From positions 56,615 to 76,614 of IMG/VR virus record IMGVR_UViG_3300023184_000088: DNA of 20,000 nt. The stretch is one strand, 5' to 3'. Below the pieces are notes generated by a model that made no database searches, was not told the DNA's origin, and worked only from the letters and a program-made list of their open reading frames with translations. Positions 10,337 through 20,000 of this stretch are shown in pieces. How positions within the stretch are numbered: position 1 is the first letter of the stretch; each line of letters begins with the position of its first letter. Source of the stretch: an uncultured virus (IMG/VR IMGVR_UViG_3300023184_000088). Lineage: Duplodnaviria > Heunggongvirae > Uroviricota > Caudoviricetes. A program made the position numbers and the translations under genes.

Positions 10337-10364
10337 AAAAAACCCCCAAGTTTCCTCGGAGGTT
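10337..10364 (-). terminator. Terminator at the 3' end of the tRNA array
   Basis: Minus strand AACCTCCGAG-GAAA-CTTGGGGGTT followed by U tract. Confidence 0.75.
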
Positions 10365-10476
10365 CTATGTAGAGTTAAATGGTATCCACACTTAGGCATC
10401 ACTCTAAGACCACCGTTCACCACCTGTAAGAGCCTAACGATAGATATTGTACTTGCTTACACTCAAATATCAGCTG

Positions 10477-10551
10477 TGTCCTCGACAGGCTTCGAACCTG
10501 TATATCTCTCGGTTATGAGCCGAGCGCCTTCACCAATTTAGCTACAAGGAC
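10477..10551 (-). tRNA. tRNA-Met(CAT) elongator, or Ile2
   Basis: GTCCTTG/CGAGGAC acceptor; CTCGG-CTCATAA-CCGAG; TTCGAAG T-loop. Confidence 0.9.
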
Positions 10552-10591
10552 AATTATGGGTTTTTAATGAACCCATAAAACATATGTCAAT

Positions 10592-10825
10592 CTATTGGTG
10601 GTGCTTAATGTACCTCCCAAATTTATCAACCCTCACAGAGAGTTTCTCCAATCTAAAGTTCCAATTATCGAACTTTCCTAAGCCAGATTTTACTCTCGCC
10701 TGTTTAACCGCAGATACTTCTGCCTTCTCACGTCCTTCTTCCGTAGTTTCTACGAAAAAAGTGGGAGCCTGAACACCAGTCTTACTGGTAGGGACTACTC
10801 TCCAAATTCTCAATTTCTGAGTCAT
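10592..10825 (-). CDS. Small hypothetical protein
   Basis: 77-aa ORF co-oriented with the tRNAs. Confidence 0.65.
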   Translation of the reverse strand: MTQKLRIWRVVPTSKTGVQAPTFFVETTEEGREKAEVSAVKQARVKSGLGKFDNWNFRLEKLSVRVDKFGRYIKHHQ

Positions 10826-10893
10826 AAATTTTAGCTAATAGCTAAAACTATGTGGAGTTGGGTTGGTTGTTTTTCATAATATTAAATTTTTTG

Positions 10894-10978
10894 TATCCGG
10901 AGAGGGACTTGAACCCTCAATCTCCTTTCGGAAAACTAGATTTTAAGTCTAGCGTGTATACCATTTCACCACCCAGAT
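10894..10978 (-). tRNA. tRNA-Leu(TAA)
   Basis: CTAGA-CTTAAAA-TCTAG; long variable arm; A73. Confidence 0.92.
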
Positions 10979-10988
10979 GTGTTCCCCC

Positions 10989-11189
10989 AATGAGATTAGT
11001 TTGGGGTAGATATTCACAGTTTTTCTATTCAAAACCCAACGCGTCTTACCGCTTAAAAGTCAACTATTACTTGGAGGTGAGTTAGTATGCTCCCCTTTTT
11101 TCCAAAGACCTCATCTGTAAAACCGTTTGAGGCGTCAGCCACATCATTATTTCGAACGATGCCAAATCATTGAGTATCTCTATCTCATT
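10989..11189 (-). ncRNA. Candidate ~200-nt multibranched ncRNA
   Basis: Terminal AATGAGAT/ATCTCATT pairing plus several internal hairpins; no credible ORF. Confidence 0.55.
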
Positions 11190-11191
11190 TG

Positions 11192-11282
11192 TTGTCAGAA
11201 CAGGAATCGAACCTGTGCTGGACCAGAGGCCACTCACTCACGTAAGACCCCCGACCGAATACTACCACTATATCATCTAACA
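11192..11282 (-). ncRNA. tRNA-like RNA lacking an anticodon loop
   Basis: Acceptor TGTTAGA/TCTGACA, D arm ATAT-AGTGGTA-GTAT, T arm ACAGG-TTCGATT-CCTGT; anticodon arm replaced by a long GUGA-capped helix. Confidence 0.75.
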
Positions 11283-11286
11283 ATTG

Positions 11287-11358
11287 AGCTTCCACGAGGA
11301 ATCGAACCCCGTTATCTTGTGTACAAAACAAGCTCATCACCATTTATGTTTTGGAAGC
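11287..11358 (-). tRNA. tRNA-Thr(TGT)
   Basis: GCTTCCA/TGGAAGC; CTTGT-TTTGTAC-ACAAG; A at position 8. Confidence 0.88.
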
Positions 11359-11569
11359 CTGTCGCAGAGTATTTTTTTTAAGTAGAAGTCAACTCTGTCT
11401 CTTAAACTACTAAAAGAAACTGTCCAAGGTCTATCCTGCTTTCGCTGTCCAGATTTTTCTCTGTTTCTTATAACATCATCACTTCGGCCACATTGGGAGA
11501 ACCGCAGTTCCCACGTTGTTTAAGGAGGTAGTTTGGCGGTGTATCACACCGAGTTATGATAATGTATTG

Positions 11570-11642
11570 TACCCCAGGAGGGATTCGAACCCTCAAAATC
11601 TTGTTCCTAAGACAAGCGTGTCTACCATTCCACCACCGGGGC
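11570..11642 (-). tRNA. tRNA-Leu(TAG), short variable loop
   Basis: GCCCCGG/CTGGGGT; CTTGT-CTTAGGA-ACAAG; 73 nt. Confidence 0.9.
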
Positions 11643-11703
11643 AATTGATGGGACTTTAACCCATCTGTTGACTATAACAAAAACATAAAAAAAGAAAAAT
11701 TAG

Positions 11704-11775
11704 TACCCCCACAGGGACTCGAACCCCGATACTATCCTTAGAAGGGATATGTCCTATCCATTGAACGATGGAGGT
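11704..11775 (-). tRNA. tRNA-Arg(TCT)
   Basis: TATCC-CTTCTAA-GGATA; A20 in the D-loop. Confidence 0.92.
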
Positions 11776-11779
11776 AATT

Positions 11780-11978
11780 AAAATAGTGTGACCAAATTTT
11801 TCACCATTGCGGTCTGAAGGAGTTGTGACTTCATCTCCACGTCCGTTATGGGTAATTACTCCCAGATGGATGACCGGTGCGCCGTTGTCTTTCATCATAC
11901 TTTTCACCTACCTATGTGTTAAAGGGTTCCGGCAGTGTCCCCGAAGGTTACTTCATATAATTACTTTTTCACTATTTT
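11780..11978 (-). ncRNA. Candidate ~200-nt multibranched ncRNA
   Basis: Terminal AAAATAGTG/CACTATTTT; fills the Gly-Arg spacer; several internal stems. Confidence 0.55.
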
Positions 11979-11980
11979 TG

Positions 11981-12054
11981 AGCAACATGCCGGTCTCGAA
12001 CCGGCCTTATTCCACATTGGAAGTGTGGTGCCATACCTACTAGGCGAATGTTGC
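11981..12054 (-). tRNA. tRNA-Gly(TCC)
   Basis: GCAACAT/ATGTTGC; CCACA-CTTCCAA-TGTGG; U73. Confidence 0.93.
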
Positions 12055-12187
12055 AGTTTAGATGAACTTCGGACTTGTGTACCGAAATGAGACCCAATAA
12101 TTAAATCACTAACCCTAGGTGTGGTCTATTCATCTATTTTTTTAAACTTATACCTTTAAAATAAATTTTAATTTTAAGCTTATAAGC

Positions 12188-12361
12188 TTAAACTTTAGTT
12201 TTAAGGATGTTAATCTCCTTCTCGATTCTTTTCTTATCAAAATCGGTTAAAGGGATTTTAGTACTCATAGTACCTTTTTCGGTTTTTACACCATTTTTTA
12301 ATTGTTTCTCCAACATATCAAGAACTCTTTGTTGTCTTGACCTTTTTGCTACTGTAGCCAT
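12188..12361 (-). CDS. Small basic hypothetical protein (57 aa, MATVAKRSRQQRVLDMLEKQLKNG...)
   Basis: Hand-translated ORF below the ORF-track cutoff; protein-like composition. Confidence 0.6.
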   Translation of the reverse strand: MATVAKRSRQQRVLDMLEKQLKNGVKTEKGTMSTKIPLTDFDKKRIEKEINILKTKV

Positions 12362-12383
12362 ACGGATTTAGTTATTAAATTAG

Positions 12384-12456
12384 TAGCGTAGGGCAGGTAA
12401 CGCTCCTGCTTTGGTCGGCTTATGAGACCGATGAGATACTATACCTCCCCCTCGCG
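12384..12456 (-). tRNA. Initiator-like tRNA-Met(CAT), atypical
   Basis: 5' CGCG with C1 mismatch; TCGGT-CTCATAA-GCCGA; T-loop AGCGTTA; bulged A in the acceptor stem. Confidence 0.75.
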
Positions 12457-12468
12457 ATGTATTATTTT

Positions 12469-12558
12469 TGGCGGTCTACGTGGGAGTCGAACCCACTTTT
12501 TCGTTTACCTACTTACTACCGTGACAGGGTAGCGCAACAGCCGTTATGCGCGTAGACC
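12469..12558 (-). tRNA. tRNA-Asp(GTC) with 19-nt variable region and encoded CCA
   Basis: GGTCTAC/GTAGACC-GCCA; CTACC-CTGTCAC-GGTAG. Confidence 0.85.
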
Positions 12559-12661
12559 AAAATTTTCAATTCAAAGGTGACAATCCTATAACAATTGAAA
12601 GAGAAAGAACCGTGTTTCCCGGGTAGTGACTTCCCGTATCCTGTCTTCCTGTTTTGTTTTA

Positions 12662-12692
12662 CAAAGATAGTTATTAAATCTTTAATAACCAA
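12662..12692 (-). promoter_or_regulatory. Bacteroidota-type promoter
   Basis: TATCTTTG (-7) with TTG about 20 nt upstream. Confidence 0.6.
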
Positions 12693-12698
12693 TTTTTT

Positions 12699-13304
12699 TC
12701 ACACCATTTTATTAAGTGTTGGTAAATACCATTTAAATTTCACCGCCATTACTCTAACTGATATAATCACTAATGAAGTGGTTAGATATAACACATCTGA
12801 GTTTAGGTTAAATTTCCTAAGTATGAAGAACACAATCCCCCCCAATATACAAATGGTTGCATATATTTCTTTTTTAAATATAACCGGTATTTCAGCACAT
12901 AGAATATCTCTAATCACACCACCAAAACAAGCGGTCATTGTACCTAATGCGATACATATAATGGGATGTAGACCAATGTTTATTCCTTTTTCTAATCCAA
13001 TCAATGTGAATACACCTAAACCGATTGTATCGAATATAAACAGATATATTTTAAACTTCTCTATCAGTTGTTTGAATAGTAATGTTAATATAAATCCTGT
13101 TATTATTATAAAGATATAATCTATATTGACCATCCATCCTACCGGTGTTCTTCCAATCATTACATCTCTCAGTGTTCCACCACCTAATGCGGTTACGAAT
13201 GTAATTATAAACACTCCGAATAAGTCCATTTTTTTATCTATGGATACTAAAGCTCCGGATATAGCAAATGCCAGTGTCCCTATTAGGTCTAATAAATTAA
13301 ACAT
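12699..13304 (-). CDS. Trimeric intracellular cation channel (TRIC)/UPF0126 YadS-like membrane protein
   Basis: GTLAFAISG, TALGGGTLRD, DTIGLGVF, TACFGGVIRDIL duplicated motifs. Confidence 0.9.
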   Translation of the reverse strand: MFNLLDLIGTLAFAISGALVSIDKKMDLFGVFIITFVTALGGGTLRDVMIGRTPVGWMVNIDYIFIIITGFILTLLFKQLIEKFKIYLFIFDTIGLGVFTLIGLEKGINIGLHPIICIALGTMTACFGGVIRDILCAEIPVIFKKEIYATICILGGIVFFILRKFNLNSDVLYLTTSLVIISVRVMAVKFKWYLPTLNKMV

Positions 13305-13351
13305 TAATCATTTATTTTAAATTAATTGGTCTTAACAATAGACCTTTTTTG

Positions 13352-13423
13352 TGGAGATATAGGGAGTTGAACCCTAATTTACGATTTGCAAAACCATTGT
13401 AATAGCCGTTATACTATATCCCC
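13352..13423 (-). tRNA. tRNA-Ala(TGC)
   Basis: GGGGATA/TATCTCC with G3-U70; ATGGT-TTTGCAA-ATCGT. Confidence 0.92.
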
Positions 13424-13608
13424 AATTTTGGATAGATGAGGTTCTATCCGGACCATGACCTTCTCCCTTGGGAGATGTCTGTTAAAATTATAGATTAAGG
13501 TATTGTACCAACACCAGCGGAATCGAACCGTTATGGTTGCCGGGAATCGAACCCGACATTCACTTAATCTTTCCCCAACCGCGGGAAAGAATTTCTTCAT
13601 AATTTTAG

Positions 13609-13680
13609 TACTGCCACGGAGAATCGAACTCCGATTTTATGGATGAAAACCATAGGTCCTGACCGTTAGACGATGGCAGC
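13609..13680 (-). tRNA. tRNA-Glu(TTC)
   Basis: TATGG-TTTTCAT-CCATA; canonical T arm. Confidence 0.92.
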
Positions 13681-13726
13681 GTCTGTATTACCAATATGTC
13701 AATTAACTTGTTATTTTTTGATGTTA

Positions 13727-13757
13727 CAAAGATAATACTTTATTTCATTCCACCAAA
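13727..13757 (-). promoter_or_regulatory. Bacteroidota primary-sigma promoter
   Basis: TTTG-N19-TATCTTTG upstream of tRNA-Glu. Confidence 0.8.
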
Positions 13758-13759
13758 AT

Positions 13760-13897
13760 TTATTCTTCAATAATATTATTTAGAACCAAATTTAATGCGT
13801 GGTCTTCATCCCACTCTGATTCATCAACAACATTTTTTAATCCGTAGGTTACTCCCAATATCGGTGAGTAATCCATAACCAATTCTTCTCTAATCAT
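13760..13897 (-). CDS. Small acidic hypothetical protein (45 aa)
   Basis: MIREELVMDYSPILG... hand-translated, in an operon with its neighbours. Confidence 0.5.
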   Translation of the reverse strand: MIREELVMDYSPILGVTYGLKNVVDESEWDEDHALNLVLNNIIEE

Positions 13898-13905
13898 AAT
13901 AGTTA

Positions 13906-14016
13906 TTATTTTTTTGTTATTTTATCAACATAATGTTTACCGATAACAATTAAAACTACTAAACCAATAAACATTAAACCAACGATAATCCCCAATTGTT
14001 CTTCTGTGTATCCCAT
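13906..14016 (-). CDS. Small single-TM protein (36 aa)
   Basis: MGYTEEQLGIIVGLMFIGLVVLIVIGKHY. Confidence 0.55.
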   Translation of the reverse strand: MGYTEEQLGIIVGLMFIGLVVLIVIGKHYVDKITKK

Positions 14017-14020
14017 GTCT

Positions 14021-14263
14021 TTAATTTGTTTTTTTCCAATTATTAGTATTATAAATGCAAAATTCTGAACCCACTTGGGCGTTTCTCCAATCATTCGGAT
14101 ATAGATAAAACAATTTATCATCACCGGTACATTCATTTCTAATTACAACAGAATAATCTCGTACTCTATTACTAATTACTAAACCACAATTACAACTCAC
14201 ATACTCATCGACAGAACAAGATAAGATTAGTGGGATGGACATAATTAAAATCAATTTTTTCAT
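14021..14263 (-). CDS. Small Cys-rich lipoprotein
   Basis: MKK + hydrophobic stretch + LSC lipobox. Confidence 0.7.
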   Translation of the reverse strand: MKKLILIMSIPLILSCSVDEYVSCNCGLVISNRVRDYSVVIRNECTGDDKLFYLYPNDWRNAQVGSEFCIYNTNNWKKTN

Positions 14264-14283
14264 AATTTATTTCTTTTAAACTT

Positions 14284-14469
14284 CTAATTCCAATCTTCAT
14301 ATTCTATACTACCATCATCATCCCAAGCGTCTTCCTCTTCATCTTCATCCTTTAATCCACACTCACCTCTAAAATCTAAGTAAGGTATCATATCATCTTC
14401 GTGAGCATTCTTTTGATGTTTCACCCAAGATTCTCTACATTTTTCTTCTGTCATGATTTCTTGTTTCAT
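14284..14469 (-). CDS. Small acidic hypothetical protein
   Basis: Start MKQEI downstream of the promoter at 14487. Confidence 0.6.
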   Translation of the reverse strand: MKQEIMTEEKCRESWVKHQKNAHEDDMIPYLDFRGECGLKDEDEEEDAWDDDGSIEYEDWN

Positions 14470-14486
14470 AATCCTTTTATTTTTGA

Positions 14487-14517
14487 CAAAGATACGACTT
14501 AATTTCATTCTGCCAAA
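14487..14517 (-). promoter_or_regulatory. Bacteroidota primary-sigma promoter
   Basis: TTTG-N19-TATCTTTG. Confidence 0.8.
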
Positions 14518-14526
14518 TATAAACCA

Positions 14527-14559
14527 AAAAAAAATCCACCTTTTTTGAAGATGGATTTT
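14527..14559 (-). terminator. Rho-independent terminator
   Basis: Minus strand AAAATCCATCTT-CAAA-AAAGGTGGATTTTTTTT. Confidence 0.7.
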
Positions 14560-14790
14560 AGAATATTTTTTTACTTAAATATATATCATACCATCACTGT
14601 CTCAGTTGTATCTCTACCCTCAGTTCCCGCTATCGTAAGTAATATGTTTAAAGTTTGCATTTTTTGTGTTATTGTGATTTCTAATAAATATACGACATTT
14701 TGTGAAAGTGTCAAGTGGTTTTAAAATTATTTTTTTAATTCATCTCAATTTCAAGATATTTATAGTAAATAAACTTTTAAAAATTCAATT

Positions 14791-14961
14791 ATGAATCAAG
14801 AACAAATTTTTGGTGTTATTCGCCACGTATTCACTGCCGTTGGTGGTATTGTCATTGCACAAGGTTATATATCTGACGGTATGTACACTGAATTATCAGG
14901 AGCGGTATTAACATTAGTTGGTGTAATTTGGTCAATTGTTGCTAAAAAACCTACAGTATAA
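14791..14961 (+). CDS. Small two-TM membrane protein, putative holin (56 aa)
   Basis: MNQEQIFGVIRHVFTAVGGIVIAQG...GAVLTLVGVIWSIVAKK; has its own terminator. Confidence 0.7.
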   Translation: MNQEQIFGVIRHVFTAVGGIVIAQGYISDGMYTELSGAVLTLVGVIWSIVAKKPTV

Positions 14962-14968
14962 TAAACTG

Positions 14969-14999
14969 AAAAAGGTTAGAGAAATCTAACCTTTTTTTT
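14969..14999. terminator. Bidirectional terminator
   Basis: aaaaaggttaga-gaaa-tctaaccttttttt. Confidence 0.8.
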
Positions 15000-15018
15000 A
15001 TGCCTATAAGTTAAATAA

Positions 15019-15233
15019 AAAAAGTTTAACAACCCCGCCCTCGGGTCGTAGCGGGCAACTTGAGAATCACTTCTCGTGGGAATTCCGGAATTGGTTGTGT
15101 TCCTCACCGGCGTACTAGTCCTTATCTATCCTTTACCGTATTTCTACGGTGCTACTATTGGGAGGTCACCCCTATCAACACAACTAGTCCATTAGTTTTT
15201 TAGAGTATGGACACCCCGGTTGTTAAACTTTTT
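15019..15233 (-). ncRNA. Candidate 215-nt multibranched ncRNA
   Basis: Perfect 16-bp terminal stem AAAAAGTTTAACAACC/GGTTGTTAAACTTTTT enclosing at least five GC-richer stems; strand inferred from context. Confidence 0.6.
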
Positions 15234-15432
15234 AATTTAATATTCTCTTACATAACGGCGATAATCGCCGGTATTTAATATTTTTGTAAAACAACAGACG
15301 GCTTTGAAGTACATCCACACCAACAATTATGACCGACTTCACCTTATGTGGAAGTTTAGTTTTACAATATCTATAAAGATTTACCCCAGCCTTTAGGTCG
15401 CTATTAATACCTTTAATCCTTATTCTCAAATT

Positions 15433-15497
15433 AATTAATACAGGAATCGAACCTGCGTCTGGGCCGTCACCCCGTAGTACCACTCTACTAATTTTTC
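15433..15497 (-). pseudogene. Truncated tRNA-like element (possibly Val(GAC)-derived)
   Basis: Intact D arm GTAG-AGTGGTA-CTAC and T arm GCAGG-TTCGATT-CCTGT; 3-bp anticodon stem; weak acceptor. Confidence 0.55.
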
Positions 15498-15562
15498 ATT
15501 TTACCTTCCGGAGATAACTTTCGTCTGTCACCTTATTCAACCTTATATGAATAAATCTTTTG

Positions 15563-15631
15563 CACGCCATCAAAGAATCGAACTCTGTCCTATGGGTTTG
15601 GAATCCATTTGGCTACCTTAGCCTATGACGC
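15563..15631 (-). tRNA. tRNA-Trp(CCA), short D-loop
   Basis: GCGTCAT/ATGGCGT-G73; ATGGA-TTCCAAA-CCCAT. Confidence 0.82.
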
Positions 15632-15641
15632 ATTTTTATTG

Positions 15642-15724
15642 AGTTCAGGGTCGGATTCGAACCGACGAGGACTTTCGTCATTGGTTTTGCAGACCAATCT
15701 AATCAACCACTCTAGCACCTGAAC
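15642..15724 (-). tRNA. tRNA-Cys(GCA) with long variable arm
   Basis: GTTCAGG/CCTGAAC-U73; TTGGT-CTGCAAA-ACCAA; variable arm GAC-GAAA-GTC. Confidence 0.88.
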
Positions 15725-15785
15725 ATTTAAAGTAAAATATAATTTACAAATACACCCATTTTTGTAAATTATATTTAATGTTAAT

Positions 15786-16031
15786 TTAATATCCTATTTC
15801 ATCTTTAACCTCCCATTGTTTATCAATGGGAATTCTTTCAATCTTTTCCACCGGAACAAATCCGTCAAATCCTTTGTCTTTAACATCTTCAAAATGTTCT
15901 ATGGTGTCCAAGTAAAATCCAAATTGATATCTAACGTATTGGAACTTCTCTCCGTCCCAATAAGCGACGTGGTTGTTTCTACAAAAACCATTATACCACC
16001 CCTCAACCATTTCATTTTTTGGTATCATCAT
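15786..16031 (-). CDS. Hypothetical protein
   Basis: 81-aa ORF; GWYNGFCRN...AYWDG. Confidence 0.7.
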   Translation of the reverse strand: MMIPKNEMVEGWYNGFCRNNHVAYWDGEKFQYVRYQFGFYLDTIEHFEDVKDKGFDGFVPVEKIERIPIDKQWEVKDEIGY

Positions 16032-16155
16032 TTCTATTTTTATATTAGCACCCTCTTTCTTATTATCAGGTATACGTCTGATTTCATTTCTCTTTCACTG
16101 AATATGTAAGAGTAGGGTCACGTAGTTACTGGATGAACCCAAATAACTTACTTGC

Positions 16156-16233
16156 TGAGAACTCATTTGTGTTGATAGAGGCGTTCTCTATACGTTTAAT
16201 TTACCTTTTCCCCTCTCACCGGGAACAACACAT
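16156..16233 (-). ncRNA. Repeated structured RNA, copy 1
   Basis: 46-nt core identical to 19141-19186; three-way junction plus pseudoknot. Confidence 0.6.
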
Positions 16234-16407
16234 CCAGCCATTACTGACAGGTATCTTTATGTAAATTTAATTATGGTAAGCAGGGCGCCTGGTATTATCT
16301 TCTAGAAGACAGGGACAAACTTATACTCTTACCTTTTGGACTATGCCTAGCCACTTTCCCATTTCATTTATAATTAATTTACAAAGGTTCGATGTTCAGC
16401 CTATTTT

Positions 16408-16593
16408 TTACAAAGATACAATTACATTTCTACTTTTAAGAATTTTTCTCAAAAAAACTAATCTTTTTCTATGATTAGTGTACTCATCAGCATCATTGGC
16501 TTTGTGACCTCTAAATATTGATTCGGTTACCTCACATTCAAGTTTAATAATTTCGGTTATTATCTCCTCCGTGGTTAGATTACTTTTTTTCAT
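16408..16593 (-). CDS. Hypothetical protein
   Basis: 61-aa ORF with ATGA overlap. Confidence 0.55.
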   Translation of the reverse strand: MKKSNLTTEEIITEIIKLECEVTESIFRGHKANDADEYTNHRKRLVFLRKILKSRNVIVSL

Positions 16594-16913
16594 ATCTTCT
16601 CAAATTCGTCTTCAAATCCGTACCACTCATCACCATTTTCATCTTCGTACCAACATTTGTATTCTCGCTCGTACCGATTCCAATCAACTCTGATTAATTC
16701 AACTTCATCTCCACCATCTTTGTTTTTAACCACTTCACCCACTTGGAATGCTTGTGGAGCATAATTATCAATTGTTTTACTTTGAACAATTAAATCCCCA
16801 ACACTTTTAACCTCATCGGTTTGGATGTTGGTGTATTTTCCACCGGATGATAATTTCCACCCATTACTATACAACCAAATTGTAAAATCTAAAATCTCTT
16901 TTTCTAATAACAT
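16590..16913 (-). CDS. Hypothetical protein
   Basis: 107-aa ORF; C-terminal FQVGEVV...YKCWY small beta-barrel-like pattern. Confidence 0.7.
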   Translation of the reverse strand: MLLEKEILDFTIWLYSNGWKLSSGGKYTNIQTDEVKSVGDLIVQSKTIDNYAPQAFQVGEVVKNKDGGDEVELIRVDWNRYEREYKCWYEDENGDEWYGFEDEFEKI

Positions 16914-16946
16914 AATACATCAGTTTTTGTGAGGACAAAGATAATA

Positions 16947-17279
16947 CTATTTTCTACCCAATCCTACAATCGTAACACTTTTAATCTTTTTTTTACCTTT
17001 TTTCACTTTTTTCTCAACTTTTGGTTGGGAAGCTCTATTTTGTAACGACAATACCTTTCTAGTTACTTTACACATTTTTTCTAAAATCTCTAATGATTCA
17101 AGATTCTTAAAGAAAACTGTGAGAAGTTCTTCCGATTCGTCTGAAGAATAAACATTATCACCAATCATTCTTGGTTTTAATAATTTATTAAAACTAATAA
17201 AGGGTGTTTGAGTAATATTCTCAATTCCCGCACCCATAGACAATTCTCCCAATCCCGCAACAACAATACTTTTTTTCAT
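16947..17279 (-). CDS. Hypothetical protein
   Basis: 110-aa ORF downstream of the promoter at 17303. Confidence 0.65.
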   Translation of the reverse strand: MKKSIVVAGLGELSMGAGIENITQTPFISFNKLLKPRMIGDNVYSSDESEELLTVFFKNLESLEILEKMCKVTRKVLSLQNRASQPKVEKKVKKGKKKIKSVTIVGLGRK

Positions 17280-17302
17280 AATTTTTATATATTTAATTTC
17301 GA

Positions 17303-17333
17303 CAAAGATAATACAATTTTTTAAACTACCAAA
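17303..17333 (-). promoter_or_regulatory. Bacteroidota primary-sigma promoter
   Basis: TTTG-N19-TATCTTTG. Confidence 0.8.
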
Positions 17334-17339
17334 CTTTTT

Positions 17340-17849
17340 TTAAAAAAATAAATATGGTTCCCATTCTTTTGGGATGTCGTGATGAACTTGTTTCATTAAC
17401 ATCAAATAGTGAGGTCTTCTGGGTTGAGGGATTTCTTTACCATACTCCTCTAACGTCAAATTGGACTTCTCACCGTTACATCTCCTACAAGCGGTAACCA
17501 AGTTATCCCAACTATCTTTACCCCCCTTAGATTGAGGCACTACGTGGTCCAAAGTTAATGTCTTTCTATTATTACATCCACAATATACACACTCAAAATT
17601 ATCTCTACGATAAACATTCTCTCTATTTAAAGGAACTTTTTGTATGATTTGATTCACATATTTATAAACTCGGATAATGGATGGTTTTTTAATATCCAAT
17701 TCGGGATTCACTAATTTAAATGATTCCGGATGTTCGTTTATAACATCGGCATTACCTTTATAAGAAATGACGAAAGCCCTCTCTGTGGAAATAATACTCC
17801 TCGCCATATAACTTGAATCCAAGACCAAAGTTTTTTGGTAACTACTCAC
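17340..17849 (-). CDS. HNH endonuclease (McrA-like)
   Basis: RDNFECVYCG, TLDHVVPQSKGG..SWDNLVTACRRCN. Confidence 0.92.
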   Translation of the reverse strand: MSSYQKTLVLDSSYMARSIISTERAFVISYKGNADVINEHPESFKLVNPELDIKKPSIIRVYKYVNQIIQKVPLNRENVYRRDNFECVYCGCNNRKTLTLDHVVPQSKGGKDSWDNLVTACRRCNGEKSNLTLEEYGKEIPQPRRPHYLMLMKQVHHDIPKEWEPYLFF

Positions 17850-17883
17850 GATTATTAATTTTTAATTAAACATTTTTTTTTTG

Positions 17884-17956
17884 TGACCCCGGATGGATTC
17901 GAACCATCACTCTACGCATTAAAAGTGCGTGGCTTTGCCAGTTAAGCTACAAGGTC
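17884..17956 (-). tRNA. tRNA-Lys(TTT)
   Basis: ACGCA-CTTTTAA-TGCGT. Confidence 0.93.
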
Positions 17957-18040
17957 ATTATTCGGCTCATTTCACATTGTTATTCGGCTCAAAATCCTCA
18001 TATTATGAGCCGAATAATGGTGGTTTGTGAGCCACATTTG

Positions 18041-18112
18041 TCGGTACGGATGGACTCGAACCATCGACGACCATTTCATCAGAATGGGCTTCTACCACTG
18101 AATTACGTACCG
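18041..18112 (-). tRNA. tRNA-Ile(GAT), G37
   Basis: CGGTACG/CGTACCG-A73; CCATT-CTGATGA-AATGG. Confidence 0.88.
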
Positions 18113-18657
18113 AATAAATTATAGTGTAATTCTCTATGACAATTAGAACATAATAAAATACATTTATCTAATTCTTCTTTTATTTTATCCCAAGACATAT
18201 TCATATTACTTGAAGGTGCAAAATCTTTTTTTTCAGGGTCTAAATGATGAAATTCTAACGCAATTACACATTTTTTATATCCACACTTAACACATTCTCC
18301 CCCTTTATATTCAACGGCTCGTTCTTTGTTTCGTCGTCTAAAACTTTTTACGTGTAAATAATTATTTCTAATTCTTTCTTCATCGGTTAATAATGTTACT
18401 TTTTTTTCCACATAATATTTTACGGAATGTGGAGACATATTAAAAAAATCTGCAGTTTCTTGTCTAGTGTGTGTTTGATAATATTCATTAATCTCCTTAA
18501 CTTTATCATCAGATAACCTTACTTTACCATCTGCTCTACCACCTAAACCATTATCTTTACAATATTTACTAACCGTTGATTTGGCTAAACCTGTTATTTT
18601 TTGTATTACATTAACACTTTTTCCTTCTCTTCTTAATTCTAAAACTTTTTCTTTCAT
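18103..18657 (-). CDS. HTH + HNH endonuclease, probable homing endonuclease
   Basis: N-terminal HTH (GKSVNVIQKITGLAKSTVSKY); YKGGECVKCGY, LEFHHLDP, CILLCSNCHRELH. Confidence 0.88.
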   Translation of the reverse strand: MKEKVLELRREGKSVNVIQKITGLAKSTVSKYCKDNGLGGRADGKVRLSDDKVKEINEYYQTHTRQETADFFNMSPHSVKYYVEKKVTLLTDEERIRNNYLHVKSFRRRNKERAVEYKGGECVKCGYKKCVIALEFHHLDPEKKDFAPSSNMNMSWDKIKEELDKCILLCSNCHRELHYNLFGT

Positions 18658-18751
18658 ACTTACACCCTTTTTATTATCATTACCTGATAATTATAAGTAT
18701 CTTGGTTTTAGTGAAAAACCATATTTAATTAAAAACATTTTAACACGATTG

Positions 18752-18830
18752 TCGGGTAGACAGGACTCGAACCTGCAATAAAATGTCCTCATCCCAAATG
18801 AGGCGACTTAGCCAATTAGTCTACTACCCG
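18752..18830 (-). tRNA. tRNA-Pro(TGG), 10-nt variable region
   Basis: CGGGTAG/CTACCCG-A73; CCTCA-TTTGGGA-TGAGG. Confidence 0.9.
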
Positions 18831-18948
18831 AATTTAATTAGTTGAGTTTATAACATCTTTATCCTACTAAGGCAAGGACTCCATTTGGGGTTCCGTTGAT
18901 TGATGTCTCTTTATACCCCCTCACGGAACAAGTGGGGGAACTAATTAG

Positions 18949-19034
18949 TGGAGAGCAGAATACTCGAAATCCATCCGTTTTACCGAACCACTCGCTTAGC
19001 AGGCGGTGACAATACCCTGATTGTTTTACTCTCC
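18949..19034 (-). tRNA. tRNA-Ser(GCT), divergent
   Basis: GGAGAGT/GCTCTCC; CGC-CTGCTAA-GCG; long variable arm; imperfect T stem. Confidence 0.75.
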
Positions 19035-19040
19035 ATTTTG

Positions 19041-19112
19041 TGTCCCCAAGAGGATTTGAACCCCTATCTCTGATGCCGTAAATCAAAATTCTATCCGTTG
19101 AACTATGGAAAC
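19041..19112 (-). tRNA. tRNA-Arg(ACG)
   Basis: TTGAT-TTACGGC-ATCAG; A20. Confidence 0.88.
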
Positions 19113-19122
19113 AATTTGAGGT

Positions 19123-19199
19123 TGAGAACTCCTCTGTGTCGATAGAGGCGTTCTCTATACGTTTAATTTACCTTTTCCCCTCTCACAGGAACAACACAT
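19123..19199 (-). ncRNA. Repeated structured RNA, copy 2
   Basis: Near-identical to 16156-16233 with structure-preserving changes. Confidence 0.6.
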
Positions 19200-19200
19200 T

Positions 19201-19458
19201 TCATAACCTTAATTTATAAATTTCTTTATAGTCATCCAAAGCGTTCTTCAGATTAACAATACATTCTCGGTAATTAACATCATCACCTAAATCAAATCTT
19301 TCATTTTCCTCTTCTCTCTTGAATAACACTTTTAACGAATTATCAATGTTAGATAAAATATCCAAGTAAATCAATTCCTTATCTTTGGACTTCTTTAAAT
19401 CAAATTTTAAATCAATAATGATTCCTTCCAATTCCTCGATTTTGTCTTCTTCTTCCAT
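19201..19458 (-). CDS. Hypothetical coiled-coil-like protein
   Basis: 85-aa ORF. Confidence 0.7.
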   Translation of the reverse strand: MEEEDKIEELEGIIIDLKFDLKKSKDKELIYLDILSNIDNSLKVLFKREEENERFDLGDDVNYRECIVNLKNALDDYKEIYKLRL

Positions 19459-19472
19459 AACAAATAATTAAG

Positions 19473-19546
19473 TGTGAAAGGTGGGACTCGAACCCACAAT
19501 CTCCTGAACCACAATCAGACGCTTTACCAATTCAGCTACAATCACC
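19473..19546 (-). tRNA. tRNA-His(GTG)
   Basis: G-1 encoded; TCTGA-TTGTGGT-TCAGG; two U-U mismatches in the acceptor; A73. Confidence 0.85.
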
Positions 19547-19612
19547 ATATAAAACCCCACTTCCCCGGCTTAACGGACCGAGTGCCATATAGGAGGTGTG
19601 GGGATAACCTCG

Positions 19613-19684
19613 CTCTTCCGGGTGGGCTCGAACCACCATAAATTGATTAACAGTCAACCGTAATAACCCTTATACGACAGAAGA
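19613..19684 (-). tRNA. tRNA-Asn(GTT)
   Basis: TCTTCTG/CGGAAGA-G73; GTTGA-CTGTTAA-TCAAT. Confidence 0.92.
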
Positions 19685-19834
19685 ATATTTGACCACTATG
19701 TTATTTTGCGAACGTATGAAGCTCGTATCATTATTAAGTCATAGTAGTCCAAGGCGTTACGCACCCATCTGGTAACTTTACTTCTCTTGAGTCCGGGTAA
19801 GCGCTTACCAACTCGGGGGTTGTTTCCTTGTTTG

Positions 19835-19907
19835 TGGGGACTACCGGTTACGCTCCGGTCTCCTTGATTCTTCAGACCAATGCTTTCACTAGATTAGCTT
19901 AATCCCC
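19835..19907 (-). tRNA. tRNA-Phe(GAA), atypical T-loop
   Basis: GGGGATT/AGTCCCC-A73; TTGGT-CTGAAGA-ATCAA; T-loop AGCGTAA. Confidence 0.85.
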
Positions 19908-20000
19908 AATTAAAATGATGGTGAGATACCCGTTTCGTCTCACTCTTGACTGCTTAATAGTAGTTTTACTGTGCACAGGCAGAGGGTTATAATTTCGTTT

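Follow-up and report, generated by a model that had tools for sequence, protein, structure and literature searches.

Between the transfer RNA (tRNA) genes of an uncultured Caudoviricetes phage (IMG/VR record IMGVR_UViG_3300023184_000088, positions 56,615 to 76,614; this whole stretch of 20,000 nucleotides (nt) is hereafter termed the window) lie at least 11 unrelated candidate structured RNAs of 49–215 nt, or about 16 when additional units are counted. These units are discrete, conserved, non-coding, and stem-closed modules on the tRNA strand, and for some of them the evidence supports structured RNA. On balance, sequence comparison inclines us to regard the spacers as new small structured RNAs, which would share transcripts with the tRNAs and be freed when these are processed. 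A preliminary description of the window had listed 11 such units (U1–U11); all 11 were located at the coordinates claimed for them, on the minus (tRNA) strand, and each is closed by a terminal stem of 5–16 base pairs (bp) (Table 1). That description had several units abutting tRNA ends; most units in fact lie 1–10 nt from a tRNA end, and units and tRNAs share promoter-to-terminator units on the tRNA strand, i.e., a polycistronic layout of tRNAs and non-coding RNAs whose limits are predicted from consensus matches. Its characterization of the units as GC-richer is only partly borne out: the GC content is 0.35–0.63 overall and at least 0.41 in 6 of the 11, and coding bins lie at approximately 0.26–0.36.

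The window is the final 20 kb of a 76.6 kb record with a CheckV completeness of 26%, and the complete genomes among its relatives (IMG/VR phages of the ~300 kb class) measure 289–322 kb. Related loci were collected with an 81-residue open reading frame (ORF) within the array as one query, which yielded 20 loci, and with a 22-base core of U3 as another, which yielded 37 IMG/VR contigs. The pool thus comprises 57 loci and the window; some contigs are present twice and the sets overlap, so distinct sequences were counted. The search for homologs in phage metagenomes that the preliminary description had proposed was productive, since each of the 11 listed units has homologs in related IMG/VR phages. 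Given as near-full nhmmer hits and distinct sequences in the pooled loci, the counts are 31/14 for U1, 23/2 for U2, 47/8 for U3, 11/6 for U4, 15/7 for U5, 39/18 for U6, 11/1 for U7, 5/2 for U8, 30/11 for U9, 30/14 for U10, and 18/8 for U11.

Comparison of cassettes and boundaries across about 55 related contigs of ~300 kb phages indicates that the arrays are syntenic and that the units are precise present-or-absent cassettes in fixed slots. Conservation begins and ends at the closing stems, and the limits of insertions and deletions (indels) in relatives coincide with the unit boundaries. For example, U4 (six distinct homologs, 89–97% identity) occupies its slot in the window and in a few relatives and is absent in six others, in which the gap between the Gly and Arg tRNAs is 3–6 nt, and U2 is cleanly inserted (~58 nt) at the junction of U3 with the leader of the Thr tRNA. 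U5 lies invariably 4 nt ahead of a Gly tRNA, and U3 usually 4–7 nt after tRNA-Leu(tag) (at most 12 nt in 16 of 22 contexts). Of the 20 contexts counted for each of U9 and U10, 15 place U9 within 12 nt ahead of a tRNA for His, Ile, or Asn, and 17 place U10 within 12 nt ahead of one for Asn, Met, Ile, or Pro. Indels inside the units comprise whole hairpins or single bases, which indicates non-coding sequence, and neither a consistent ORF nor a conserved frame or start codon was found in alignments of the 11 listed units with their relatives. No second copy of any unit was found in the phage's own 76.6 kb contig. The closing stems can apparently persist while interiors change, because the U5 slot of one relative (L005) is reduced to the closing hairpin with a loop of 4–6 nt and the U10 stem of another (L011) surrounds a shortened interior. 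In this AT-rich DNA, chance matches overwhelmed a search for further cases of the same arms around a different interior (9-mers, one mismatch), and only L005 and L011, recognized by eye, and the D6 repeat family described below remain.

Several units are more strongly conserved than their surroundings. Relative to the window, median identity reaches 100% for U2 and U7, 98.9% for U3, 98.3% for U10, and 97.5% for U11, and the values of 99–100% for U2, U3, and U7 compare with medians of 82–87% for widespread ORFs and 79–97% for most tRNAs. All 11 hits of U7 are a single sequence with 100% identity. The tRNA-Leu(tag) gene beside U3 exists as several very different alleles, whereas U3 itself barely varies.

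Covariation of stems among homologs, on which the preliminary description had staked its proposal, is strong in U6, modest in U1, U9, U10, and U11, and minimal in U5; U2, U3, U4, U7, and U8 vary too little to reveal it. When compensatory substitution is taken as a criterion for structured non-coding RNA, U6 therefore qualifies, and U1, U9, U10, and U11 qualify in part. For U6, 17 distinct sequences were aligned into seven helices, two of them crossing (pseudoknots), with 48 pairs and 98.3% of cells paired; both sides are changed in 12 of the 48 pairs, versus 2.7 ± 1.2 in shuffled data (reached in 0 of 500), and slid controls gave 1–2. The eight distinct sequences of U11 form 17 pairs (97.7% paired), three of which are changed on both sides, with nine both-side-changed cells versus 3.4 in shuffled data (0 of 500 reaching this) and none in slid controls. 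In the RNAalifold structure of U1 (14 distinct homologs; 60 pairs, 94% paired), 22 cells are changed on both sides versus 9.8 in shuffled data (0 of 500), and the corresponding count of pairs, 5 of 60, is matched by 231 of 500 shuffles. The inner hairpin of U9 is changed on both sides in two of five pairs, with 98% paired (nhmmer found 11 distinct sequences, and 10 were aligned), the outer stem being misaligned between two sequence types. A covariance model of U10 (R1) gave 20 matches (12 distinct) with 15 pairs, 96.7% paired, of which two are changed on both sides; the window copy is of a divergent type and lies below E 0.01 with this model. Two units outside the listed 11 extend this series: X10369 has 25 pairs, 99.2% paired, with both sides changed in five (reached by 0 of 500 shuffles), and X19908 has both sides changed in 6 of 17 pairs, one hairpin contributing four of six. 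RNAalifold yielded few pairs for U10 and X19908, and their pairs were therefore counted on hand-written structures, which are less independent. In U5 (seven distinct homologs), 1 of 28 pairs is changed on both sides.

Within U6, the segment 15200–15233 (alignment columns 20–49) holds two overlapping helices, both of which covary in three lineages, and the loop of one hairpin pairs with a downstream strand. Either the segment forms a compact pseudoknot or it can adopt two different folds.

The single sequence also contains a weak folding signal. In the non-coding gaps, 22 long-range Watson–Crick stems of at least 8 bp were counted versus 7.1 ± 2.8 after dinucleotide shuffling, and 10 of at least 9 bp versus 2.1, neither number being reached in 150 shuffles. 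The z-scores of the minimum free energy (MFE) on the tRNA strand are −1.4, −1.6, −1.1, −0.3, −2.6, −2.8, −0.6, −1.0, −0.7, −3.1, and −0.7 for U1 to U11, respectively, with a median of −1.1 (3 of 11 below −2), compared with −2.0 for the window tRNAs (9 of 17 below −2) and −0.75 for length-matched coding controls (2 of 33 below −2; units versus controls, Mann–Whitney p = 0.026). The direction of the base changes bears on the strand: the U10 alignment contains many one-sided switches among G-U, G-C, and A-U that are compatible with the tRNA strand only, and the two changes seen in the U3 stem (U-A to U-G and U-G to U-A) fit an RNA on the tRNA strand.

Several results weigh against the reading of the spacers as structured RNAs. 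The preliminary description took folding beyond shuffled controls as a touchstone, and 8 of the 11 units fall short of it (z > −2); the single-sequence signal supports a structured-RNA claim only weakly, and the folding test alone is insufficient for it. When G-U pairs are allowed, the non-coding gaps contain no excess of long-range stems (97 versus 86 ± 11 in shuffled sequence). Regarding covariation, the helices of U6 were picked after the same alignment had been scanned for covarying helices, which makes the comparison partly circular, and the both-side pair counts of U1, U9, U10, and U11 are reached by 78 to 285 of 500 shuffles, so that for these four units only the cell-based measures stand out, and these can be inflated by kinship of the sequences. 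No compensatory change was found in U2, U3, U4, U7, and U8, which vary little (two distinct sequences in U2, one in U7, and two in U8), and the near-identity of these five units could reflect recent horizontal spread instead of constraint. A strand test by RNAalifold energies is indecisive (sums of −539 versus −513), U6, U9, and X19908 fold slightly better on the strand opposite the tRNAs, and the strand of the units is assigned mainly from context. Furthermore, a search of five complete relatives for the complement of an exposed stretch of U3 returned only the U3 locus itself (in four of the five) and no partner or target. In favor of the reading, RNA libraries contribute a weak hint. Parts of the stretch occur in 16 runs, and the contigs of four were compared; assembled contigs from these four metatranscriptome runs of four studies match units at 97–100%, and two of 160–168 nt lie within U4, which reports presence and not transcription, strand, ends, or level, and these contigs may derive from contaminating DNA.

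In the region 16165–16486, a single contig of one of these runs (X3), with a mean depth of ~2506, covers 16237–16250, between the repeat copy D6a and U8; its cause is unexplained, and it is not treated as evidence. Elsewhere in the array, bin depth in this run does not rise above 86, and the same bin is the highest in run X4 as well; contig depth cannot rank genes.

The units have no counterpart among known RNA families. In agreement with the preliminary description, no Rfam 15 family (riboswitches, ribozymes, 6S, tmRNA, SRP, Y RNA, GOLLD, and ROOL included) was found for any of the 11 units, either at gathering thresholds or at E ≤ 5; the 16 window matches at gathering thresholds are tRNA in every case, and the sub-threshold matches at E ≤ 5 all lie outside the 11 units. 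An identity as tRNA (RF00005, cloverleaf and T-loop, at least 29 bits) was rejected with 0 of 11 units hit even at E ≤ 5; U5 is labelled as a tRNA by ARAGORN at a relaxed threshold only. Bacterial Y RNA was likewise dropped, as Ro60 (TROVE) and RtcB were each detected in 0 of 5 complete relatives and control genomes gave hits. Distant blastn searches of window positions 10369–12600 and 15000–16400 (U1–U8) against 50,697 phage records returned tRNA hits only. Homology to T4 rnaC or rnaD was not found, the comparison consisting of blastn for U1–U8 and of a whole-array megablast only for U9–U11, in a collection in which the presence of T4 was not checked. The exact 22-mer of U3 has no hit in GTDB species genomes, and in 401 sampled Bacteroidota genomes nothing of the query was matched except its tRNA portions and a single AT-rich stretch. 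A degenerate pattern of the U6 core gave 11 hits in unrelated phyla, which were treated as chance because nhmmer detected no wider similarity. Among 15 units, no shared 6-mer or 7-mer exceeds the shuffles, i.e., there is no sign of a common protein site, and ACCTCC occurs in 4 of 15 units, inside the null range. U3 contains a predicted unpaired, nearly invariant stretch of ~24 nt that includes ACCUCCUUA, which we take to be the anti-Shine–Dalgarno sequence of 16S rRNA; this 9-mer match is single and could be due to chance. A resemblance between the U3 hairpin and helix 45 of 16S rRNA was considered and dropped because the shared letters would occupy different structural positions and no rRNA-like Rfam hit was obtained.

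The proposed route of release is as follows. RNase P, by cutting at the 5′ end of the downstream tRNA, would free the 3′ side of a unit, and trimming of the 3′ end of the upstream tRNA or an endonuclease cut would free its 5′ side. Excision by tRNA-processing enzymes is proposed because the units lie 0–10 nt from tRNA ends. Owing to the closing stems, hardly any single-stranded overhang would remain, which would protect the excised units from exonucleases, and the protected units would accumulate as stable small RNAs, as is reported for RNAC and RNAD of the T4 tRNA cluster. It is possible, and we advance it tentatively, that the units act in trans during infection, in which case they would bind or titrate other RNAs or host factors that themselves bind or cut RNA; roles as decoys, antitoxins, or scaffolds, as suggested in the preliminary description, are conjectural. 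A role in trans is favored because the units are accessory, are shuffled between phages as cassettes, and in some cases (U2, U3, and U7) have diverged less than the neighboring genes and tRNAs. A broader conjecture, to which we attach little probability, is that the tRNA slots of these giant phages form a general plug-in platform for expression and excision, in which any small RNA with an acceptor-like closing stem placed between two tRNAs would be cut out by the tRNA-processing enzymes of the host and the cassettes would be swapped like anti-defence genes for takeover or counter-defence at the RNA level. Under this conjecture, U3 is a concrete candidate that could titrate messages bearing a Shine–Dalgarno sequence or proteins masking that sequence, beside the bS21 gene and the GOLLD RNA of these phages (see below).

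The main alternative to a role in trans is a role in cis, in which the units would be parts of the tRNA precursors: leader, spacer, or trailer structures that insulate the tRNAs and set or protect processing sites, with U6 and X10369 ending the transcript and no function remaining after excision. The location of units directly upstream of various tRNAs (His, Ile, Asn, Met, and Pro in the U9 and U10 contexts counted above) accords with such a role, as do plain hairpins in equivalent positions (3 nt before tRNA-Leu(tag), at 10554–10578 before a Met tRNA, and the bare U5 stem before the Gly tRNA in L005), the U-run that follows the 16-bp closing stem of U6, and the terminator adjoining X10369. 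A simple hairpin would, however, suffice for these tasks, whereas the units, for example U3 and U6, contain several helices, pseudoknots, and long unpaired stretches that do not vary, and U2, U3, and U7 are conserved above the tRNAs that they would serve. A function in trans is preferred to one in cis because the interiors are over-elaborate for a processing signal, some loops are invariant, and relatives that lack a unit keep the same tRNAs, spaced 3–6 nt apart, which indicates that the unit is dispensable for them; a role confined to cis thus appears rather unlikely. We regard as more improbable still that the units are mobile or recombining cassettes at the DNA level, i.e., selfish or passively shuffled inverted-repeat modules spread by recombination, possibly with the HNH endonucleases of the array, which is a reading compatible with that of structured RNAs. 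The units are single-copy in their own 76.6 kb contig, each occupies a constant slot of the array instead of being dispersed, no target-site duplication was seen by eye at the inspected filled and empty sites, and the internal helices covary and stems change via G-U, neither of which an inverted-repeat element needs. The sharp boundaries and precise presence or absence suit a DNA element nonetheless, and so do the near-identity of U2, U3, and U7 across phages whose genes are ~85% identical, the restriction of the terminal-stem excess to perfect Watson–Crick repeats, terminal inverted repeats of the kind used to define miniature inverted-repeat transposable elements (MITEs), two HNH genes inside the array, and common junction sequences after tRNA-Gly genes.

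Two further explanations carry far less weight. Short leader peptides or micro-ORF attenuators, in place of RNAs acting as such, are suggested by the D6 repeats outside the listed 11, in which 23 of 23 distinct copies begin with MCCS and an exchange of Arg and Lys resembles coding constraint. This is very unlikely to explain the units: 1-nt indels give the D6 peptides lengths of anywhere between 5 and 71 residues, the 3′ hairpin of D6 lacks a following U-run terminator, and a conserved start codon or frame is present in none of the 11 units. The least probable explanation, which we scarcely credit, is that the units are decayed tRNA genes, non-functional remnants surviving through close kinship of the phages. 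Material of this kind does occur in the array, where several tRNAs are non-canonical and the spacer 13424–13607 (minus strand) between tRNA-Glu and tRNA-Ala has two T-arm-like hairpins in tandem; homologs of this spacer were not found in the relatives, and it looks like tRNA debris and not like a conserved unit. The tRNA call of U5 by relaxed ARAGORN points the same way, set against the lack of any Rfam tRNA hit in the units, their conservation at or above the level of working tRNAs, and the covarying non-cloverleaf folds of U6 and U11.

Table 1. Candidate RNA units and other features of the window (positions of the window; a blank cell means that no value is given)
Feature	Position	Strand	Description
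U1	10989..11189	minus	201 nt; 8 bp terminal stem; 10 nt upstream of tRNA-Leu(taa)
U2	11414..11469	minus	56 nt; 7 bp stem; precise indel cassette between U3 and Thr leader
U3	11474..11564	minus	91 nt; 9–10 bp stem including G-U pairs; 4 nt after tRNA-Leu(tag)
U4	11780..11978	minus	199 nt; 9 bp stem; 1 nt after tRNA-Gly(tcc) and 4 nt before tRNA-Arg(tct), filling the slot exactly
U5	12059..12136	minus	78 nt; 9 bp stem; 4 nt upstream of tRNA-Gly
U6	15019..15233	minus	215 nt; 16 bp closing stem, then U-run; last element of the operon
U7	15284..15367	minus	84 nt; 9 bp stem
U8	16260..16383	minus	124 nt; 8 bp stem; first after a Bacteroidota-type promoter-like site at 16404-16418
U9	19555..19603	minus	49 nt; outer 6 bp stem and inner hairpin; 8 and 9 nt from Asn and His
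U10	19691..19749	minus	59 nt; 10 bp stem; 6 nt before Asn; divergent "type A" of a ~55-nt hairpin family
U11	19750..19830	minus	81 nt; 5 bp stem; 3 nt after Phe tRNA; joined directly to U10
X10369, trailer unit	10369..10475	minus	Directly after tRNA-Met(cat), followed by the terminator at 10339-10366
U2b, tRNA-Thr leader with its own stem	11359..11413	minus	Kept in relatives with or without U2
Spacer with hairpin	11643..11702	minus	Hairpin 3 nt upstream of tRNA-Leu(tag)
Spacer between tRNA-Ile and tRNA-Lys	17957..18039	minus	83 nt; 14-bp stem; conserved
X18860	18860..18947	minus	88 nt; 7 hits, 3 distinct sequences
X19908	19908..20000	minus	~93 nt; upstream of Phe tRNA; 5′ flank cut by contig end
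D6a	16150..16235	minus	Repeat copy with conserved arms and variable core
D6b	19118..19200	minus	Second copy; 4 nt upstream of tRNA-Arg(acg)
tRNA array	10476..19907	minus	17 ARAGORN tRNAs plus low-scoring or non-canonical ones
Low-scoring or non-canonical tRNAs	11191-11282, 12385-12455, 15432-15519, 18948-19034, 19834-19907	minus	Missed by default ARAGORN
Intrinsic-terminator-like hairpin and T-run	10339..10366	minus	Closes the last tRNA operon
TAnnTTTG promoter-like site	12655..12669	minus	Precedes the Asp-to-Met operon
Further TAnnTTTG-family sites	13715-13757, 14475-14517, 16402-16430, 16924-16966, 17291-17333		Consensus match
Gly_transporter-family membrane protein	12699-13304		Protein gene within array
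Holin (Phage_holin_10)	14791-14961	plus	Protein gene within array, opposite strand
HNH endonuclease	17340-17849		Protein gene within array
HNH endonuclease	18103-18657		Protein gene within array

Beyond the 11 listed units, further spacers of the array have similar properties; the preliminary description had passed over these, as well as several non-canonical tRNAs, the tRNA debris of other spacers, and the GOLLD RNA of the same genome. X10369 has 10 distinct homologs and lies at most 12 nt after tRNA-Met(cat) in 8 of 11 contexts, nhmmer returns 16 distinct sequences of X19908, of which 15 entered the alignment used for counting pairs, and the spacer at 17957..18039 belongs to a family of 11 distinct sequences of 81–83 nt. 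The arms of the hairpin at 11643..11702 show compensatory differences among relatives, as judged by eye. In the 58 pooled arrays, 461 inter-tRNA spacers of 40–320 nt were counted, 270 of them distinct, and single linkage groups the spacers into 76 families, of which 22 contain at least three distinct sequences. The window is one sample of a much larger, clade-wide set of such cassettes. In D6, present in the window as two copies, the conserved 5′ arm pairs with the conserved 3′ arm around a variable core of 40–70 nt; in the relatives, 27 distinct copies were found, often in tandem, preceding either the 81-residue ORF or, by 4 nt, tRNA-Arg(acg). Copies with the ATGTGTTGTTCC start read ATG TGT TGT TCC in 23 of 23 distinct sequences and open a micro-ORF (MCCS...) of 5–71 codons.

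ARAGORN identifies 17 tRNAs between 10476 and 19684, every one on the minus strand, and Rfam in E-value mode adds tRNAs at 19835–19907 (42 bits) and 15432–15497 (38 bits). Ser(gct)-like, Tyr(gta)-like, and long-arm tRNA-like genes in the array have low scores, and the Phe(gaa) tRNA and a second Met/Ile(cat) tRNA have the odd T-loops AGCGTAA and AGCGTTA, the same gene of relatives having the usual TTCGATT-type loop. The tRNA-Asp(gtc) at 12469–12558 (minus strand) is 90 nt long, versus 73–74 nt for the Asp tRNAs of relatives; it has an additional ~20-nt arm, its CCA end is encoded, and it is not called by the Rfam tRNA model at its gathering threshold. TAnnTTTG-type sites recur ahead of genes and tRNA blocks, and such sites together with terminator-like hairpins bracket blocks that mix tRNAs, units, and small ORFs, the limits being consensus matches. 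TAnnTTTG is the −7 promoter element of Bacteroidota and typical of the phylum. The host is probably a Bacteroidota bacterium because of these promoter-like sites and because the closest matches among cultured phages are tRNAs of Cellulophaga phages.

Large structured RNAs are also encoded in these genomes. GOLLD RNA (Rfam RF02032, 322 bits) is present in the phage's own genome at G000:C1:52949-53355 on the minus strand, ~3.3 kb before window position 1 and ~13.6 kb beyond the tRNA array, i.e., outside the window; it was also found in all four complete relatives searched (285–322 bits over own genome and relatives), and in a fifth relative it lies inside the tRNA array (L014:5862-6273). Four of five complete relatives (G001, G002, G004, and G005; loci L096-L099) carry a gene for ribosomal protein bS21. 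Genes for tmRNA were observed in two relatives, within the array in the one that also has GOLLD there (L014:4009-4383) and at L011:18971-19361 in the other.

The general kind of RNA proposed here is already known from stable RNAs in phage tRNA clusters and from GOLLD and ROOL near tRNA islands. In phage T4, RNAC and RNAD are cut out by tRNA-processing enzymes. The units share with the T4-type stable RNAs a location on the same strand, between tRNA genes, and in the same transcription unit, the operon limits being consensus predictions. They differ from these two RNAs in comprising more than 11 unrelated families arranged as swappable cassettes, in a different host phylum and phage type, and in being known from sequence alone. 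RNAC and RNAD ("species 1 and 2") are described as stable RNAs from the T4 tRNA region with unknown roles (PMC3014915, PMC9697503), and the window units are likewise candidates for small non-tRNA RNAs among phage tRNA genes. GOLLD and ROOL are presented as large, ornate structured phage RNAs that are often near tRNA islands and have no known function (PMC12286853). The window units resemble them as candidate structured phage RNAs tied to tRNA clusters; however, GOLLD and ROOL measure 400–800 nt, whereas the units measure 49–215 nt and match neither model. In Escherichia coli, the 3′ external transcribed spacer (3′ETS) of glyW-cysT-leuZ and internal spacers are reportedly by-products of tRNA precursors that act in trans as sponges. 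Such tRNA-spacer RNAs would provide an established example of the kind of release and function proposed for the units, although they are short, host-encoded, and Hfq-dependent, whereas the window units are phage-encoded and highly structured. T4-type phages also contain shuffling cassettes composed of a promoter and a stem-loop. Like MITEs and these cassettes, the units are short, bounded by inverted repeats, and patchy among related genomes; unlike them, the units are single-copy per genome, occupy fixed slots without visible target duplications, and have covarying RNA helices inside. In the passages returned by a full-text literature search, no description was found of many unrelated families, of cassette behavior, or of the stem-closed, tRNA-flanked layout.

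Phage tRNA clusters are usually read only as devices for codon supply or against nucleases. In this array, the slots with candidate structured RNAs are approximately as many as those with tRNAs, and their contents are conserved, modular, and exchanged between phages. If the units are excised and stable, more than ten new RNA families would be added to the short list of T4 RNAC and RNAD, GOLLD, and ROOL. The functions of the RNAs of phage tRNA clusters have been open for decades, and the units would, if this reading is true, provide small and tractable molecules for that question. The stem-closed, tRNA-flanked layout further suggests a natural design rule for the production of stable RNA in bacteria.

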